Source: an uncultured Alphaproteobacteria bacterium
GTDB taxonomy: Bacteria > Pseudomonadota > Alphaproteobacteria > RF32 > CAG-239
Direction of reading: 5' to 3'
DNA: 64,000 bases
Assembly: GCA_934271195.1 (NCBI GenBank)
Contig: CAKQRB010000052.1
Coordinates: forward strand, 4,352-68,351
The translations under genes and the position numbers were made by a program. The notes under the pieces were generated by a model that ran no database searches, was not told where the DNA came from, and was given only the letters and a program-made list of their open reading frames with translations. Each line of letters starts with the position of its first letter. Positions within the stretch are counted from its first letter, which is position 1. Shown piece by piece: positions 18,550 to 44,110 of this stretch.

Positions 18550-18639
18550 ATAATTATATATTTAATAATTCAAAACTATTAAAAGTTAAAACAATAAAAT
18601 TCTTTTGTAAACTGCAAATTTAATATTTTTATAGAATTC

Positions 18640-18985
18640 ACTCTTTTCTTTCCCATATTTTCCTCTTCATATTCTCCCTTATTTCTGTTCACCGACCTTA
18701 TTTTCCACCTCTCATTTTCCGCTTCACATTTTACTCCTCCAACTCCTTTGGCCTCTTCTTTTCTCTCTCACTTCAATACTTATCTTCTCATCTCTTATTT
18801 CAGCCCTCTGCTCATACTTCCAACCATTCTCCTTATCCCCACTTTCTTCTCTCACACCTCGCGGCTTTCCATTCCCCTTATCTTCTGTTTCTCTCTTTCC
18901 TTCCACCTTAGCCTCTTTTAGCCAAAATCCCCTCTGTTTTTCCCGCTCCTCTGCCCAAAATTTCAACATTATTCTTCATGAGTAT
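18640..18985 (+). repeat. Polypyrimidine (CT-rich) tract, copy 1 of a repeated promoter-bearing cassette
   Basis: About 345 bp with almost only C/T on the plus strand. The 3' roughly 100 bp is near-identical to 42110-42207 (…ctttagccaaaatcc[c/t]ctctg…ctgcccaaaatttc[a/c]acattattcttcatgagt[a/g]tttgaca). Confidence 0.8.
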
Positions 18986-19014
18986 TTGACATTATCGTTT
19001 CTTTATGATATACT
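18986..19014 (+). promoter_or_regulatory. Near-consensus sigma70 promoter of Cys-rich paralog 1
   Basis: TTGACA (18986-18991), 17-bp spacer ending in TGA (extended -10 TG), TATACT (19009-19014). Then about a 28-nt leader with SD GGGAGGAAG before the ATG at 19050. Confidence 0.75.
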
Positions 19015-19049
19015 GGTCTTAGGACTTGAACTTTTTAGGGAGGAAGCCG

Positions 19050-20417
19050 ATGAAGAATATTAACACTATGCTACACATGAAACTAAACTCTGCGGTGTCA
19101 GTTTTTGCTGTTGCCGCAGCTTTCTCGGTTTTTCTCCCAACCTCCACATTTGCAGGTGTCTGCTTCCTGCCCGACTGTGCTGATGATGTACCTCTTATTG
19201 AACCAGATGTTAAATATTGTGAAAGCAACGGCTTCACCTACTATGCTGACGGCAAGTGTCCGCAATATTATGCCAATGTCGGAAAATGTTCCCGTGACGA
19301 CCATTATCTTAAATGCGACGCCGCGAAGTGGTGTAAACAAAATGGATATAACACGACCTCATGCTCCATTCCTAAATATGTTGACACTCCTTGTCCGAGT
19401 GACGGTTCTCTTTACAAACAATGCAAGACTGACAATCCCCGCGCTTGTCAGGAGGCCGGTTATACCAAGACTTGTCCTTCCGGTCAGAAACTTAAAAAGA
19501 ACTCCAGCCGTTGCTCTTATGATAATTCTTACGGAACCTGTTGTAAACCGTCAGGTTGTCCCGCTCATACTTCATTAACCTCTTCGTCCTACGGAACTAA
19601 CGGTACTGATGGCTGCGAATATACCTGTTATTACACCTGCAACATGAACTGCCCGTCCGGTACTTCAACTTCCAACCCCGGAGGTTGTGGCGGGTCGACA
19701 CGTAACGGATGTAACACAAAAACTTGTTATTATCCTTATCAATCATGCTGCACACCAAAGTGTTCAGATGAGCATGGTTGCTCATGTGGAACAACTTCCG
19801 TTTCTGACGGATGCGGCGGAACTTGTACAAAATGTAAATCTTGTTGTAATCGCTACTCTTCAAACTGGTGTTCTGTTCACTCAACCTGTCATGGAGATTG
19901 CTGCTCTGATGGAACAATAAAACCTTGTGATACGCAATGCGGGGGTTCAGGTTGCTCTACTTGTAATAGCTCCTCTTCAAACTGGTGTTCCGTTCACTCG
20001 ACCTGTCATGGAGATTGCTGCTCTGACGGATCGATCAAACCTTGTGACACACGCTGCGGCGGATCAGGTTGCTCTACCGGCGGCGGTGGCGGCGGCGAAA
20101 CGGGTGGAAGTTCTAGCTGTTCTGGATACAGCTCTTGTTCAACTGAGTGTACTGGCGTAACCAACACCACACCTCACTGTCAAAATCGTTATAATGATGG
20201 CAGCGGTTACAATTATATCGCTCTGGTATGCAATCTGAATATTTCCAGAACCCGCGTTACCTGCAACGGACAAACCGAAACTGATGGCGGTATCGCTTAT
20301 GAACAGCTAGACCGCTGGAGCACAGGCAACCAAACAAACGACATAGCAGCTTGCGAGGCAAAACGCAAAAACACGACCTGCGTCTGCTCAAGTTACCGCT
20401 GGCCATACAACTGTTAA
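19050..20417 (+). CDS. Secreted hyper-cysteine-rich protein, paralog 1 (unknown function)
   Basis: Start is set at the ATG after SD GGGAGGAAG (the ORF track begins upstream at a TTG at 19026). Sec-type signal peptide (MKNINTMLHMKLNSAVSVFAVAAAFSVFLPTSTFA), no lipobox. The mature part is very Cys-rich with many CxC/CC/CxxC spacings and is Gly/Ser/Thr/Asn rich. It carries a 39-aa tandem duplication. Paralog at 42274-43422. Confidence 0.85.
   Translation: MKNINTMLHMKLNSAVSVFAVAAAFSVFLPTSTFAGVCFLPDCADDVPLIEPDVKYCESNGFTYYADGKCPQYYANVGKCSRDDHYLKCDAAKWCKQNGYNTTSCSIPKYVDTPCPSDGSLYKQCKTDNPRACQEAGYTKTCPSGQKLKKNSSRCSYDNSYGTCCKPSGCPAHTSLTSSSYGTNGTDGCEYTCYYTCNMNCPSGTSTSNPGGCGGSTRNGCNTKTCYYPYQSCCTPKCSDEHGCSCGTTSVSDGCGGTCTKCKSCCNRYSSNWCSVHSTCHGDCCSDGTIKPCDTQCGGSGCSTCNSSSSNWCSVHSTCHGDCCSDGSIKPCDTRCGGSGCSTGGGGGGETGGSSSCSGYSSCSTECTGVTNTTPHCQNRYNDGSGYNYIALVCNLNISRTRVTCNGQTETDGGIAYEQLDRWSTGNQTNDIAACEAKRKNTTCVCSSYRWPYNC
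19857..20077 (+). repeat. In-frame tandem duplication inside Cys-rich paralog 1
   Basis: Two 104-bp units (19857-19960 and 19974-20077) separated by 13 bp, giving a 117-bp (39-codon) period and roughly 90% identity. They encode SSNWCSVHSTCHGDCCSDG(T/S)IKPCDT(Q/R)CGGSGCST twice. Paralog 2 has a single copy. Confidence 0.85.
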
Positions 20418-20429
20418 TCGCATTTATTA

Positions 20430-20485
20430 GCAAAAAACTCTCTTTTTTCCGCCCTGTAAAGGACAGAAAGAAGAGAGTTTTTTAT
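20430..20485. terminator. Bidirectional rho-independent terminator between convergent genes (Cys-rich paralog 1 and ftsZ)
   Basis: aaaaa-ACTCTCTTTTTTCC…GAAAGAAGAGAGT-tttttt: a 13-bp stem with one mismatch, an A-run on one side and a T-run on the other. Confidence 0.6.
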
Positions 20486-20510
20486 GGCAAAATAATTAAT
20501 GCTTTTCCGC

Positions 20511-28722: not shown

Positions 28723-28789
28723 TAGTCCCCCGGATCATAAAATTTTATTTTTAATCCTACCCGCAATTTCTAAAATAAACCTTAAAATA

Positions 28790-29046
28790 TCTGATGAAAT
28801 AAAAAAACTTTTATCCTCTTTTTTCCTTTTATTTCTCTCCGTCCTCTTCCCCTTTCCCTATCTTGCCTCTTTTTTATTCTTCATTATTTTTCTCTTTCTT
28901 CTTCTCTTATCTCTCCGCTTTCGCCATTCTGCTTCTCTCATCATTCCAATTAACCAAAGTCCCCACGGCTTTCTTCACCTGTTATCCCAAACCCTGCTCG
29001 ACTTTTTATTGCATGTCAAATTTTGCACTTCTTTATGCTGTAGTAT
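28790..29046 (+). repeat. Polypyrimidine tract plus degenerate promoter, copy 3 of the cassette (orphan/decayed)
   Basis: CT-rich plus strand (about 28790-29000) ending in …ccaaagtcccc…cccaaaccctgc…ttgcatgtcaaattttgcacttctttatgctgTAGTAT. This aligns with the …ccaaaatcccc…gcccaaaatttc…tttgacattatcgtttctttatgaTATACT of copies 1 and 2, with indels in the spacer. No intact downstream gene. Confidence 0.6.
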
Positions 29047-29329
29047 CCGAATTGTCACCTGCAAGCCGGATGGCGCCGGTTTTATGCGGTGTCTTAAACT
29101 CCGTATTGCTCTGGCGGAATGTATGACAAAGTATGTGCTTTGAAAGGTTTGTCATTGCCGGACTTCAAACCGGCAATTCATAAAAAAAAGAAGCAGAGTG
29201 CCGACTGTGAAACGGTTTCTCGGATCAAGTCCAAGAATGACAAGAAAAGAATTTTATTAACCGTTCTGATCTGGGCACTCTGTTGTTCAGATAAAGAAAA
29301 GAGCAACGCGCAAGCTCTTTGCAAACTTT

Positions 29330-40188: not shown

Positions 40189-41868
40189 ATGGCTTCTTAC
40201 CAATATATTTTCGTAATGCAAAACCTGACCAAAGTCTTTCCCGGCGGCAAAGAGCTTTTCAAAGGCATCACTTTGTCCTTTCTGCCCGGTGCCAAAATCG
40301 GCGTTTTGGGCGTTAACGGCGCCGGAAAATCGACTTTGCTGAAAATTATGGCCGGAGTCGATAAAGACTTTAACGGCGAGGCTTGGGCTGCTGAAGGCGC
40401 CCGCGTCGGCTATCTTGAACAAGAGCCTAAACTTGACCCGTCAAAAAACGTGATTGAAAACATCATGGACGGCTTGGGAGAAACAAGAGACCTATTAAAA
40501 CGCTTTGAAGAAGTTTCCGCAAAATTTGCCGAGCCGATGAGCGATGAAGAAATGAATGCCTTGATCGAAGAGCAGGCAGCCCTGCAGGAAAAAATCGACG
40601 CCTGCAACGGCTGGGATTTTGAACGGACAATTGAAATCGCCATGGATGCCCTGCGCTGCCCGCCGGCCGATTCCGACGTCACCAAACTTTCTGGCGGAGA
40701 AAAACGCCGTGTCGCCCTCTGCCGCCTGCTGCTGCAAAAACCGGATATGCTGCTGCTCGACGAACCGACCAACCATCTGGATGCCGAGTCCGTGGCTTGG
40801 CTGGAAAAACATCTGCAAAATTATAACGGAACCGTTGTCATGGTGACGCACGACCGCTATTTTCTTGACAACGTTACCGGCTGGATTCTGGAGCTTGACC
40901 GCGGACAGGGAATCCCTTATGAAGGCAACTATTCTTCCTGGCTGGAACAAAAACAAAAACGTCTGGAACAAGAATCCCGAGAAGAGACAGCCCGTCAGAA
41001 AACACTGGCCAATGAGTTGGAATGGATTCAGAAAAATCCTAAAGCCCGTCAGGCAAAATCCAAAGCCCGTATTAACGCTTATGAAGAACTTCTGGCGCAA
41101 TCCGGCAAAGACAAGCTCTCTTTTGCCAGCATCAATATCCCGATGACCGACCGTCTGGGCGATTTGGTTATTGAAGCCAATGGCATTTCCAAAGGCTACG
41201 GCGACAAACTGCTGATTGACAACCTTTCTTTCAAAATTCCAAAAGGTGCGATTGTCGGCATCATTGGCCCGAACGGCGCCGGCAAAACCACATTGTTCCG
41301 CATGATAACCGGTCAGGAGAAGCCGGATTCGGGAACAATCCGCCTTGGTGAAACTGTCGACCTCGGCTACGTGGACCAATCCCGCGACGAACTTAATGCC
41401 GGCAAAACCGTCTGGGAAGAAATTTCCGACGGCCTTGATATGATCCAGCTCGGCAAGAAAGAAATGCCATCCCGCGCCTATGTCGGACAATTTAACTTCA
41501 AAGGTGCTGACCAGCAAAAGAAAGTCGGACAGCTTTCCGGCGGAGAAAGAAATCGAGTCCATCTGGCTAAAATGCTCAAAAAAGGTGCCAACGTCATTCT
41601 GCTTGACGAACCGACCAACGACTTGGATGTCGACACACTCAGAGCTTTGGAAGAAGGTATTATGGAATATCCCGGCTGCGTTTTGGTAACCTCGCACGAC
41701 CGCTGGTTTTTAGACCGGCTGGCAACCCATATTCTGGCCTATGAAGGCGACAGTAACGTTGTCTGGTTTGAAGGCAACTTCGAGGAATATGAGAAAGACA
41801 AAAAACGCCGTCTCGGCGAAGATGCCGCCAATCCGCACCGGATTAAATATAAACCGTTAATTCGCTAA
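40189..41868 (+). CDS. ettA: ABC-F translational throttle ATPase EttA
   Basis: Two ABC cassettes (two Walker A GxNGAGKST, two LSGGE signatures). N-terminus [56 protein letters not shown] is typical of EttA. Start moved to that Met. Confidence 0.85.
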
Positions 41869-41881
41869 CAGTGCTTTTCAT

Positions 41882-41914
41882 AAACGGGGTTTTAAATTAA
41901 ACCCCGTTTTTTTA
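41882..41914 (+). terminator. Rho-independent terminator of ettA
   Basis: AAACGGGGTTT-taaatt-AAACCCCGTTT followed by TTTTTT. Confidence 0.8.
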
Positions 41915-41924
41915 ACTCGACTTT

Positions 41925-42207
41925 CTGATATCCTCCCGCTCTTTCATTTTCCGCCTCTCGCCCCTCTTTCCTCTCCCGTTCCTGCATCACCACTCCTTCT
42001 TCTTTCCAATTTTGCCGCCTTTCCTCTTCACCTTCCAAGCTCTTTACTGCTCACACACCTCTTCTCTCATTCCTGTCTTTTTCCTTGCCCCACTTTCTCA
42101 TCACTTCCGTTTTTCTTTCTCTCTTTCCTTCTCATTCCTTTAGCCAAAATCCTCTCTGCTTTTCCTATTCTTCTGCCCAAAATTTCCACATTATTCTTCA
42201 TGAGTGT
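41925..42207 (+). repeat. Polypyrimidine (CT-rich) tract, copy 2 of the cassette
   Basis: About 280 bp CT-rich on the plus strand. The 3' roughly 100 bp and the downstream promoter/leader are near-identical to copy 1. Confidence 0.8.
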
Positions 42208-42236
42208 TTGACACTGGCGTTTCTTTATGATATACT
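42208..42236 (+). promoter_or_regulatory. Near-consensus sigma70 promoter of Cys-rich paralog 2
   Basis: TTGACA (42208-42213), 17-bp spacer ending in TGA, TATACT (42231-42236). Same SD GGGAGGAAG before the ATG at 42274. Confidence 0.75.
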
Positions 42237-42273
42237 GATCTCTTAGTATTGGAACTTTTTAGGGAGGAAGCCG

Positions 42274-43422
42274 ATGAAGAATACTAACACTATGCTACAC
42301 ATGAAACTAAACTCTGCGGTGTCAGTTTTTGCTGTTGCCGCAGCTTTCTCGGTCCTCCTCCCAACCTCCGCTTACTGTGGCGTTTGCTTCCTGCCAGACT
42401 GTGCTGATGATGATCTTGCCGGTGGCGGCGGAAACATGAATAAGAATGAAGATTCTGCTTTTTGTGAAAGCAACGGCTTCACCCACTATGCTGACGGCAA
42501 GTGTCCGCAATATTATGCCGATGCCGGAAAATGTTCCCGTGACGACCATTATCTTAAATGCGACGCCGCGAAGTGGTGTAAACAAAACGGATATAACACG
42601 ACCTCATGCTCCATTCCTCAATATGTTGACACTCCTTGTCCGAGTGACGATTCTCTTTACAAACAATGCAAGACTGACAATCCCCGCGCTTGTCAGGATA
42701 CAGGTTATACTAACTCTTGTCCTTCCGGTCAGAAGCTTAAAAAGAACTCCGGACGATGCTCTTATGATTCTTCTTACGGAACCTGTTGTAAACCGTCAGG
42801 TTGTCCCGCTTATACTTCTCTTGCCTCTACCAACTACGGAACTAACGGTACTGATGGCTGCGAATATACCTGTTATTACACCTGCAACATGAATTGTCCG
42901 TCTTCTTATCCTTATTCTTCTGATCCGACAGGTTGTTCCAACAGCACGACAAACGGATGCGGCAATAAGTCATGTTATAACTCCGTTTCATGTTGTAATC
43001 GCTACTCTTCAAACTGGTGTTCCGTTCACTCAACATGTCATGGTGACTGCTGTACTGACGGAACAATAAAACCTTGTGATACGCAATGCGGTGGCTCTGG
43101 ATGCAGCAGCTCAGGAGGAAGCTCAGGAGGGGGAGGCTGCTCAAAATACTATACTTGGCAAAGTGGACGCGTAAATGGAAACTCAGTTACATATACCTAT
43201 TCTGTTACCTGTCAATGCTCAGACGGTTCATCCCGTGACTTGGGAACAGAAACAACTTCTAGTGGTTGCTGGGATTGCGATTATTCTCATCTTTCTTGCA
43301 AAGCCGGCTGTGGTTCAAGCTGTTATCACCGCAATTCAGCCTATGCCGGTGCACCTTACTATCACTATATTGATTATTCAGGTGAAGACTATTGCAACTC
43401 CTACACCGGCGGTTCATGCTAA
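42274..43422 (+). CDS. Secreted hyper-cysteine-rich protein, paralog 2 (unknown function)
   Basis: 382 aa. Signal peptide and the first roughly 170 aa are about 85-90% identical to paralog 1. It has a single copy of the 37-aa CCNRYSSNWCSVHSTCHGDCC(T/S)DGTIKPCDTQCGGSGCS module, a Gly/Ser linker, and an unrelated Cys/Tyr-rich C-terminus. Confidence 0.85.
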   Translation: MKNTNTMLHMKLNSAVSVFAVAAAFSVLLPTSAYCGVCFLPDCADDDLAGGGGNMNKNEDSAFCESNGFTHYADGKCPQYYADAGKCSRDDHYLKCDAAKWCKQNGYNTTSCSIPQYVDTPCPSDDSLYKQCKTDNPRACQDTGYTNSCPSGQKLKKNSGRCSYDSSYGTCCKPSGCPAYTSLASTNYGTNGTDGCEYTCYYTCNMNCPSSYPYSSDPTGCSNSTTNGCGNKSCYNSVSCCNRYSSNWCSVHSTCHGDCCTDGTIKPCDTQCGGSGCSSSGGSSGGGGCSKYYTWQSGRVNGNSVTYTYSVTCQCSDGSSRDLGTETTSSGCWDCDYSHLSCKAGCGSSCYHRNSAYAGAPYYHYIDYSGEDYCNSYTGGSC

Positions 43423-43428
43423 TATCAA

Positions 43429-43459
43429 AGAGCTCTGCTTAATGCCAGAGCTTTTTTTT
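43429..43459 (+). terminator. Rho-independent terminator of Cys-rich paralog 2
   Basis: AGCTCTG-cttaatgc-CAGAGCT followed by TTTTTTTT, 7 nt after the stop. Confidence 0.75.
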
Positions 43460-43770
43460 GACAAAACAGCATTGACAAAAAAATCGTCAATATATAATAT
43501 ACATACATAAAACAAACATTATTAATCTTTAATTATTTTTTATTTATGAGAAAAAAACATAATTTTTTAAATTTCGGCTTTATTATTTTCATGCGCAAAT
43601 ACTTTTGCCTGATTAAACGAAAAAGATGTTCAAGGGTTCTGAAAAGGAACAATTTCCTGCCAAAATTCCGTCATCAAAAAAATCACCAGCATTTTTTATA
43701 AAAGATAATTTGCAGGCAGCTTATATTCGGCTGAAAAAAAGAATAAAAAAAAACATCTCTTTACTCAAAG

Positions 43771-43794
43771 ACGCCGGATTTCCGGCGTTTTTTC
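43771..43794 (+). terminator. Orphan rho-independent terminator inside an AT-rich spacer
   Basis: ACGCCGG-att-tCCGGCGT followed by TTTTTT. It lies inside the listed 62-aa ORF (43626-43814), which argues that ORF is not coding. Confidence 0.5.
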
Positions 43795-43810
43795 TATATC
43801 TCGCTCAACC

Positions 43811-43839
43811 TTGACCCCATCATAAAAATATGCTATAAT
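43811..43839 (+). promoter_or_regulatory. Consensus-like sigma70 promoter for the 61-aa ORF
   Basis: TTGACC (43811-43816), 17-bp spacer, TATAAT (43834-43839). The SD AAGGA is about 8 nt before the ATG at 43873. Confidence 0.65.
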
Positions 43840-43872
43840 ACATCTTGGTTTGGACAGTAAAGGACGAAACAC

Positions 43873-44058
43873 ATGAGTATGAACATTTCATCAAATTACG
43901 GTTCTTATCCGCCAATAATAAATTCATCTCAATTAAGTGATATGAAAACCGCCCTTCAGGTTCAGGAAAAAATTGCTGAAACTGAAAAAAATACCCAACT
44001 TCAAACCGCCATTGCGGCAAGTGGCGCCAAAGGACAAATTGTCGACATCAGTATTTAG
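43873..44058 (+). CDS. Small hydrophilic hypothetical protein (61 aa)
   Basis: Complete single-gene unit with its own promoter, SD and terminator. Sequence: MSMNISSNYGSYPPIINSSQLSDMKTALQVQEKIAETEKNTQLQTAIAASGAKGQIVDISI. No family recognised. Confidence 0.5.
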   Translation: MSMNISSNYGSYPPIINSSQLSDMKTALQVQEKIAETEKNTQLQTAIAASGAKGQIVDISI

Positions 44059-44079
44059 AGTTTCAGGTCAGAACACCTA

Positions 44080-44110
44080 AAAAACCTCCGCTCAAACGGA
44101 GGTTTTTCTT
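44080..44110 (+). terminator. Rho-independent terminator of the 61-aa ORF
   Basis: AACCTCCG-ctcaaa-CGGAGGTT followed by TTTTCTT. Confidence 0.75.

Follow-up and report, generated by a model that had tools for sequence, protein, structure and literature searches.

The DNA analysed here, referred to as the window, is a stretch of 64 000 nucleotides (64 kb) from an uncultured Alphaproteobacteria bacterium (contig CAKQRB010000052.1). It carries a Cys-rich gene at 42274–43422 on the plus strand, termed paralog 2 (par2), and a relative at 19050–20417, also on the plus strand, termed paralog 1 (par1). Both encode a signal peptide, a trunk of Cys-rich repeats, one or two copies of a further Cys/His module and a C-terminal tail, or head. 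The two genes are mosaics, in which promoters, signal peptides and trunks are closely similar and the heads are unrelated, and the same architecture recurs in a multigene family in which conversion between copies and turnover of whole cassettes are seen. Our best explanation, given a joint probability of ∼0.55, is that par2 is a functional, independently transcribed member of this large family, that the family occurs solely in one narrow clade of uncultured Alphaproteobacteria from the mammalian gut, and that the par2 product is a disulfide-stabilised stalk bearing a small putative binding head. The evolutionary part of this explanation (conversion, domain shuffling and cassette turnover) is by itself very probable; the stalk-and-binding-head function is more tentative and falls somewhat short of even odds.

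Mosaic similarity and gene conversion

The initial annotation had described the open reading frame (ORF) at 42274–43422 as a second Cys-rich paralog, and its relationship to the gene at 19050–20417 was borne out by a BLASTP identity of 70% over amino acids (aa) 1–286 (E = 5e-134). Par1 encodes 455 aa and has a tail, assigned to class 0, that ends in RWPYNC. The mechanical ORF list begins it at TTG 19026, and we place its start at 19050 because a Shine–Dalgarno sequence and an ATG are shared there with par2. At the nucleotide (nt) level, blastn aligns 42116–42902 with 18888–19657 at 86.8% identity, and the module region 42988–43104 with both 19839–19955 (89.7%) and 19961–20072 (83%). The two tandem module copies of par1, at 19844–19960 and 19961–20077 on the plus strand, are 88% identical to each other. 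Beyond 43104, the sequence has no blastn match anywhere else in the window. The single module copy of par2, its Gly/Ser linker and a Tyr/Cys-rich tail unrelated to that of par1 were all present as first described.

Sliding identity to par1 changes abruptly along par2. It is at background level 5′ of 42112, 82–100% over 42130–42380, 37–55% with a 21-nt indel over 42382–42470, 85–98% over 42472–42890, ∼50% with a 99-nt indel over 42892–42987, 88–90% over 42988–43104, and at random level past 43104. The sharp breakpoint that had been anticipated in such an alignment is therefore one of several (∼42116, 42382–42470, 42890, 42988 and 43104/43105), divergence is non-uniform, and synonymous divergence differs several-fold between segments. 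High identity had been noted over the 5′ half of the gene; this holds for the 5′ part of the coding sequence, but the block is larger, beginning ∼158 nt 5′ of the ATG and taking in the promoter and the 5′ untranslated region (5′UTR). Antisense ORFs on the minus strand, at 42322–42585 (87 aa) and 19098–19340, had been cited as conserved too. They exist and are similar, but only as shadows of duplicated sense strands that are 85–100% identical there, and the 87-aa ORF is no gene.

Non-synonymous (dN) and synonymous (dS) divergence between par1 and par2 were calculated for each segment by the Nei–Gojobori method (NG86). The values were dN 0.059 and dS 0.103 for the trunk (dN/dS 0.57, the differences being mainly non-synonymous), dN 0.011 and dS 0.66 for the module (dN/dS 0.02), and dN 0.51 and a saturated dS of 1.7 for the post-trunk region (dN/dS 0.29). 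The longest identical run, 69 nt at 42285–42353, lies within the signal peptide (permutation p = 0.003). Segment-wise identity, the contrast in dS and this run together indicate that promoter, signal peptide and trunk were homogenised recently. Judged by its substitution pattern, the similarity of the module is due to strong purifying selection on an older divergence and not to the recent 5′ conversion, and the two heads have, on sequence comparison, no detectable common ancestry. An account without recombination would make the genes old duplicates whose 5′ part is merely under stronger purifying selection than the 3′ part, in keeping with a trunk that is well conserved, with invariant Cys columns, throughout the family. 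It is contradicted by the heterogeneity in dS, which is 0.10 in the trunk and 0.66 in the module although the module is the more constrained, by the trunk dN/dS of 0.57, by identity that runs 158 nt into non-coding upstream DNA, and by the conversion tract described below; we regard it as extremely improbable.

The initial annotation had argued for a recent duplication or conversion of the 5′ part together with an exchange of C-terminal cassettes. Conversion of the 5′ part and family-wide shuffling of tails are retained, but a recent tail swap between par1 and par2, and the derivation of the module from the same event, are not. The simplest history suggested by the sequences is one of old paralogs with different tails, whose 5′ parts have recently been homogenised, plus occasional domain shuffling; it is preferred over a recent tail swap because both tail classes recur in other species and metagenome samples. 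The tandem duplication of the par1 module is polymorphic, a conspecific contig (L001, nt 844–960) having a single copy, and it is not recent, since the two copies in par1 differ at dS 0.60.

Contig L001 also holds a conversion tract. From 19961 of the window onward it is 99.35% identical to the window, and it is therefore taken as the par1 locus, beside ftsZ, of the same species. The orthologous par2 locus from a sister sample (L086) has the same tail as par2 and is 96.5% identical over 42221–43695. Along L001, nt 1–109 are par1-like (97%), nt 110–523 are 99.8% identical to the par2 allele L086, and nt 524–840 are again par1-like (96%, compared with 75% to par2). Since the two switches are bracketed by informative sites, at 109/110 and 511/524, there is no 118-nt stretch of identity between the paralogs at these points, as an assembly mis-join at k = 119 would require, and we read the contig as carrying a genuine tract of ∼414 nt moved from par2 to par1. 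Two other loci, P0004 and P0003, were considered as the par2 locus and ruled out as different loci, and looking up par2 and P0002 by exact sequence gave no record.

Whole cassettes turn over as well. In MGYG-HGUT-04444 (L072), the par1 site has the same flanks as in the window, U32 peptidase at 90.5% identity and FtsZ at 93.5%. Homology ends at 18630, the edge of a pyrimidine-rich (CT) tract, and resumes at 20432, 15 nt past the par1 stop; the gene in between has a trunk only 59% identical and a tail of a different class. A second site lies between mraY and kdsB; it is occupied by a family gene in four other species, and homology to the window breaks at 28812 and resumes at 29311–29327. The window itself has a relic or empty cassette site there (28780–29323, plus strand), which comprises a CT tract, a box variant (TTAACCAAAGTCC, at ∼28950), a promoter-like element (CTTCTTTATGCTGTAGTAT) and a 217-nt leader remnant, with no gene; it could still drive a small transcript. 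Between the stops of par1 and the convergent ftsZ lies a palindrome of ∼52 nt (20432–20486), probably a bidirectional terminator, at which synteny with related genomes resumes.

The proposed evolutionary mechanism thus has three components. Conversion between co-resident full-length copies would homogenise promoter, signal peptide and trunk, shuffling at the level of domains would take place at the linker or module joints, and whole cassettes, consisting of CT tract, promoter and gene, would be replaced, gained or lost at fixed chromosomal sites.

Conversion between paralogs can also serve classical antigenic variation, in which one expressed copy is fed from silent donor cassettes, as in pilE/pilS, vlsE and msp2. 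Here the tract in L001 (414 nt) is seen directly, the family is large, its products are probably exposed in the animal gut, and the unusual-composition tract upstream recalls the guanine-quadruplex (G4) element on which pilin variation depends, located 5′ of pilE (PMC3547852). The silent C-terminal cassettes for which the initial annotation had proposed a search did not appear: neither the window nor 842 kb surrounding 79 loci (∼6 kb on each side) yielded an orphan tail, seven apparent ones being neighbouring genes cut off at locus or contig ends. Instead, 66/79 copies from the genome scan are complete ORFs, the remainder being cut by contig ends, and no promoterless partial copies were found near family loci. 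All 74 copies with alignable upstream sequence keep the start codon and the Shine–Dalgarno sequence, in the form GGGAGGAAGCCGATG, and promoter-like −35/−10 elements can be made out in many. The tail classes are not scrambled but reappear in different species and samples, and it is the conserved trunk, not the variable head, that was converted. The family resembles Neisseria pilE/pilS in the segmental conversion among members and in the unusual DNA tract just upstream (PMC3547852), but no silent donors were found, conversion homogenises the conserved part rather than varying the exposed part, and the tract is a pyrimidine run and not a G4 motif. Antigenic variation of this kind is very unlikely.

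A family with a common trunk and exchangeable heads

A search of 5.8 billion proteins returned 258 relatives, with E values as low as 1e-248. Each of them lacks a name or bears the label ‘hypothetical protein, Alphaproteobacteria bacterium’, and in most the match is limited to the first 60–71% of par2. A profile search of 1.84 billion cluster representatives matched 188. In a scan of one genome per GTDB species, 113 confirmed copies were found in only six metagenome-assembled genomes (MAGs), which come from the gut of human and mouse, water-deer rectum and three further samples, with ∼15–25 copies per genome scattered over many contigs; a scan of metagenomes gave three short contigs only. Because the family fragments short-read assemblies, these copy numbers should be taken as minimum values, and there is a risk of chimeric gene models. 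In practice, tools for calling antisense or chimeric ORFs can be misled by the family. MAG contigs that end in or beside family genes are L026, L027, L036, L037, L039, L040, L042, L059, L060, L064, L071 and L080. A literature search found no paper with the motif CFLPDC and none describing the family.

The shared architecture is a Sec signal, the motif G[VI]CFLPDC, three 38-aa Cys repeats, variable Cys modules, usually a Gly/Ser linker, and a head. Par2 has the signal peptide, the motif and three 38-aa repeats with the invariant Cys spacing. A Gly/Ser linker followed by a tail of 40–130 aa is present in about half of 120 homologs listed. When the last 55 residues were clustered with SEG filtering, 77 tail classes were obtained among 181 proteins, and nearly every copy within a genome has its own class (17 genes in 14 classes, 12 in 11, 10 in 9, 9 in 9 and 8 in 8). 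The par2 class is also found in P0001, P0029, P0079, P0089, P0093, P0119 and P0253, in three different architectures and on trunks 50–65% identical to that of par2; the par1 class is present in three of the six species, with trunks 57–83% identical. One tail class can sit on trunks that are only 57–65% identical, and P0001 and P0002 have near-identical trunks with different tails. For 45 of the 66 genome-assigned genes, the nearest trunk is that of a same-genome paralog with a different tail, same-genome pairs making up 17% of pairs. The family varies by whole domains, not by point substitutions. The par2 tail had also been considered as a target of a diversity-generating retroelement; this was dropped, as 43105–43422 has no second copy in the window (blastn of 41500–44000), a reverse transcriptase not having been searched for.

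A possible role for the heads is suggested by Lcl_C (PF07603, formerly DUF1566). Distant relatives of 750–1843 aa begin with the signal peptide, ICFLPDC motif and trunk of the family and carry at least one Lcl_C domain at the C-terminus, scoring 44–85 bits, above the Pfam gathering threshold of 34.9. Among close members, the tail class of P0023, P0096 and P0048 is homologous to Lcl_C domains (hhalign probability 99.2%, E = 1e-19). Lcl is an extracellular adhesin that binds glycosaminoglycans (PMC11162425). Given these Lcl_C carriers, the trunk appears to be a recurrent N-terminal module of proteins that present binding heads, and it is because distant and some close relatives carry such heads that we favour a stalk with exchangeable binding heads. 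In this mechanism the protein would be exported via its Sec signal peptide, the disulfide-rich trunk would form a common stalk or anchor, and the heads would be ligand-binding modules of adhesin or lectin type, displayed outside the cytoplasm, those of one genome making up its specificity repertoire. Legionella Lcl, likewise secreted, also has an N-terminal part from which a repetitive stalk leads to a binding head at the C-terminus (PMC11162425). It differs in that its stalk consists of collagen-like triplets, whereas that of the family is built of disulfide-rich 38-aa repeats; the par2 head is not Lcl_C, and the family uses dozens of other heads.

Several points weigh against our explanation. 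The link to Lcl_C is limited to a minority of heads and excludes par2. Tail classes 5 and 33 (WRIPS..EL) resemble it but were not confirmed as further DUF1566 domains, the Pfam match (E = 0.04) being below threshold and the hhalign probability <1%. No anchor or secretion-system signal was recognised in par2 or par1 with Pfam and NCBIfam. On the evolutionary side, the contig with the conversion tract begins just 32 nt 5′ of the gene, and the comparison genomes are all metagenome assemblies, so that copy numbers and some of the mosaics could be affected by assembly.

Polymorphic toxin systems, in the broad outline of their defining description (Zhang, Aravind and colleagues, Biol Direct 2012; PMC3482391), have a conserved N-terminus, unrelated hypervariable C-termini that begin at a defined junction, many paralogs and recombination. 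All of this, linker included, is paralleled here, and the family could on these grounds consist of polymorphic toxins or bacteriocin-like effectors, with an N-terminal delivery module and variable C-terminal toxins directed against competitors. Small disulfide-rich tails also have a faint Foldseek likeness to laterosporulin, a defensin-like bacteriocin, though not a significant one (E = 0.39). The surroundings of the genes do not fit. Downstream sequence was long enough for examination at 65 loci. In most of them the first sizeable ORF past the gene is on the opposite strand and starts within ∼35–200 nt of the stop, and no recurrent co-directional small ORF is apparent, the downstream ORFs not having been grouped by tail class. 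Unlike toxin loci, the family has no adjacent immunity gene at the loci examined, and neither orphan tails nor standalone tail cassettes were found within ∼6 kb of 79 loci or in the window; par2 itself is followed by a terminator and then by a separately promoted 61-aa ORF without a match to the family. Across 103 members, Pfam gave no toxin domain, nor anything else useful. No trafficking domain was recognised, the members having a plain Sec signal only, and some of the heads are lectin-like adhesin domains of the Lcl_C type. We consider a toxin function unlikely.

The products might instead remain in the periplasm or envelope without being displayed, for example as Cys/His-rich proteins that buffer metal or redox state, with the variability of the tails reflecting relaxed constraint. 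A signal of the signal peptidase I type is the only one recognisable, neither an outer-membrane anchor nor an autotransporter or sorting tag having been found, Cys makes up 11–13% of residues, and His is conserved in both the module (CSVHSTCHGDCC) and the head (CWDCD..H..C...C..CYH). Yet the tail classes are conserved across species and samples, which points to purifying selection rather than drift, and the module has a dN/dS of 0.02. The family also includes adhesin-type Lcl_C heads, and a repertoire with one head class per copy is hard to explain by buffering. An undisplayed envelope role is, in our assessment, quite unlikely.

A likeness in layout to the stalk with exchangeable heads is offered by TraA of Myxococcus, a polymorphic cell-surface receptor with a Cys-rich tandem-repeat stalk and a variable distal recognition domain that sets specificity. 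Its polarity is opposite to that of the family, the variable domain being N-terminal and a sorting tag C-terminal, and it is encoded at a single locus rather than by ∼20 genes. TraA has no sequence relationship to par1 or par2, which gave no hit in NCBIfam or Pfam.

Multigene families that join a conserved N-terminus to interchangeable C-terminal domains and undergo gene conversion are known in principle. New here are the domains and the taxon, together with the absence of immunity genes or silent donors and the presence of a strand-specific tract upstream. Alphaproteobacteria represented by MAGs only, those of human and mouse gut included, spend ∼15–25 genes on one unannotated, predicted-exported, disulfide-rich family, and neither the trunk nor most of the heads matched a known fold. 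If the heads bind, the family is probably the main interface of these bacteria with host mucus, glycans and other microbes, and would supply new binding domains that are small and resistant to proteases. As a clean natural case in which a bacterial chromosome displays concerted evolution, domain shuffling and cassette turnover, the loci are made tractable by defined breakpoints and an observed conversion tract.

Pyrimidine-rich tracts at the cassette edge

The pyrimidine-rich tract at the cassette edge poses a separate, testable puzzle. Tracts were defined by at least 80% C+T in 150-nt windows, and only three are present in the 64 kb, all on the plus strand: two precede the family genes and one lies at the relic site. 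The first, at 41895–42211, is located 5′ of the par2 promoter and forms the left part of the variable cassette; it comprises 317 nt (A44 C116 G22 T135), with C+T of at least 80% and G ∼7%. The second (18618–18978) is 5′ of par1, and the third is at 28780–29000. At two independent sites (18630 and 28812) the left edge of the tract is also the point where synteny breaks. The tract also holds homopyrimidine runs of 17–24 nt, and the window has 11 purine or pyrimidine runs of at least 16 nt, compared with ∼1.3 in shuffled sequence.

In the 842 kb around family genes elsewhere there are 16 tracts. All of them (16/16) are pyrimidine-rich on the coding strand of the family gene, 13/16 end 63–719 nt 5′ of its start, and they occur in three of the six lineages. 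Tracts of 200–600 nt were observed at L019, L020, L024, L025, L035, L052, L055, L060, L070, L072, L076, L078 and L080. The composition, G-poor and C-rich, resembles that of a Rho-loading site, and candidate roles for the tracts are to insulate the gene by loading Rho or to favour recombination as non-B DNA.

The tract would be the active element if the family were a bacterial counterpart of variant surface proteins, with ∼20 cassettes per genome that each join a strand-specific, G-poor pyrimidine tract and a promoter to the common stalk and a head of its own. In that case it could act as a recombination initiator prone to non-B DNA or R-loops, driving conversion and cassette replacement much as the G4 does at pilE, or alternatively as a Rho-loading insulator or switch that chooses which heads are expressed. 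The variant-specific surface proteins of Giardia form a large surface family in the gut lumen with ∼11–12% Cys and, as here, one conserved and one variable end. They differ in being eukaryotic and unrelated in sequence, in that their conserved part is a C-terminal membrane anchor, and in their mutually exclusive expression. A bacterial counterpart of this kind is unlikely; if true, it could let the bacterium adjust in the gut how it binds or what immune profile it presents.

Segments of par2 and neighbouring signals

The par2 coding sequence begins with ATG and specifies 382 aa, of which 43 (11%) are Cys. A predicted Sec-type signal peptide occupies aa 1–35 (42274–42378), with K2 and K11 in the n-region, the h-region AVSVFAVAAAFSVLL and small residues at −1 and −3, so positioned that signal peptidase I would cleave after A-Y-C35; it is almost invariant throughout the family. 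The lipobox rule [LVI][ASTVI][GAS]C does not apply to par2, where the residue preceding the candidate Cys is Y (A-Y-C35) or V/I (G-V-C38), and a lipoprotein reading was dropped because, throughout the family, the invariant Cys is preceded by V or I without exception. The CFLPDC motif (42385–42402) at the predicted mature N-terminus has F39, L40, P41 and D42 invariant or nearly so, and even distant relatives of 750–974 aa retain it. A variable acidic/Gly/Asn spacer follows (aa 44–62; 42403–42459), which accounts for the 21-nt indel and the 37–55% identity relative to par1.

The trunk (42460–42801) consists of three tandem 38-aa four-Cys repeats, R1 (aa 63–100), R2 (aa 101–138) and R3 (aa 139–176), related to one another with hhalign probabilities of 93% (R1–R2 and R1–R3) and 81% (R2–R3). 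AlphaFold2 predicts it with a local confidence score (pLDDT) >90, and no PDB match was found by structure or by sequence. A fourth Cys-rich segment (GTDGCEYTCYYTC...) and a divergent stretch come next (42802–42990), 99 nt shorter than in par1 and with the dS of 1.7 given above. The single 38-aa Cys/His module CCNRYSSNWCSVHSTCHGDCCTDGTIKPCDTQCGGSGC (aa 240–277; 42991–43104), 89.7% and 83% identical in nucleotide sequence to the par1 copies, is predicted with low confidence (pLDDT <50). The Gly/Ser linker SSSGGSSGGGG (aa 278–288; 43105–43137) marks the last homology breakpoint, and beyond it lies the 94-aa class 2 head (43138–43419), predicted to form three long beta-strands and a helix followed by the Tyr/Cys-rich tail.

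Conserved His residues stand among the Cys of both the module at 42991–43104 (WCSVHSTCHGDCC) and the head at 43270–43330 (CWDCD..H..C...CG..CYH). On this pattern, the Cys and His could form metal sites instead of, or besides, disulfides. A reading of the motifs as heme-binding (CxxCH) was dropped on sequence grounds.

Par1 and par2 gave zero matches in Pfam, NCBIfam and PADLOC, par2 having no Pfam hit even at E ≤ 1, and for trunk and head alike there was no matching entry in Pfam, NCBIfam or PDB. Used as the only query, the par2 head retrieved no homologs, probably owing to the word index of the search. The whole window had 0 hits in Rfam.

The expression signals of par2, all on the plus strand, lie close to the gene. 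A sigma-70-type promoter (TTGACA-N17-TATACT with a TG extension; 42208–42236) agrees with the consensus at 11/12 positions and is near-identical in par1. The box TTAGCCAAAATCC (42140–42152) sits between CT tract and promoter and also occurs in the upstream region of par1. The Shine–Dalgarno sequence AGGGAGGAA (42261–42269) ends 4 nt 5′ of the ATG, and 8 nt past the stop is an intrinsic terminator with the stem AGCTCTG/CAGAGCT followed by T8 (43431–43460). In other genomes, a conserved leader of ∼90 nt (TATTAACCATTCGACGTGCTCGAAAAAGAAAGGCCGATGATGACAAACGATCGGG...) precedes the start codon of many paralogs; it has small hairpins and a CCGATGA copy of the start region, and may be a regulatory 5′UTR. 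It is absent from par1 and par2 and was observed at L007, L008, L012, L013, L015, L019, L021–L025, L029, L032 and L035.

Downstream of par2 lies the 61-aa ORF (43873–44058). It has no Pfam or family match, is unlinked to the family at other loci, and was considered as YjfB-like without support from Pfam. Within the region 43811–44100, it has its own near-consensus promoter (TTGACC-N17-TATAAT), a Shine–Dalgarno sequence and its own terminator.

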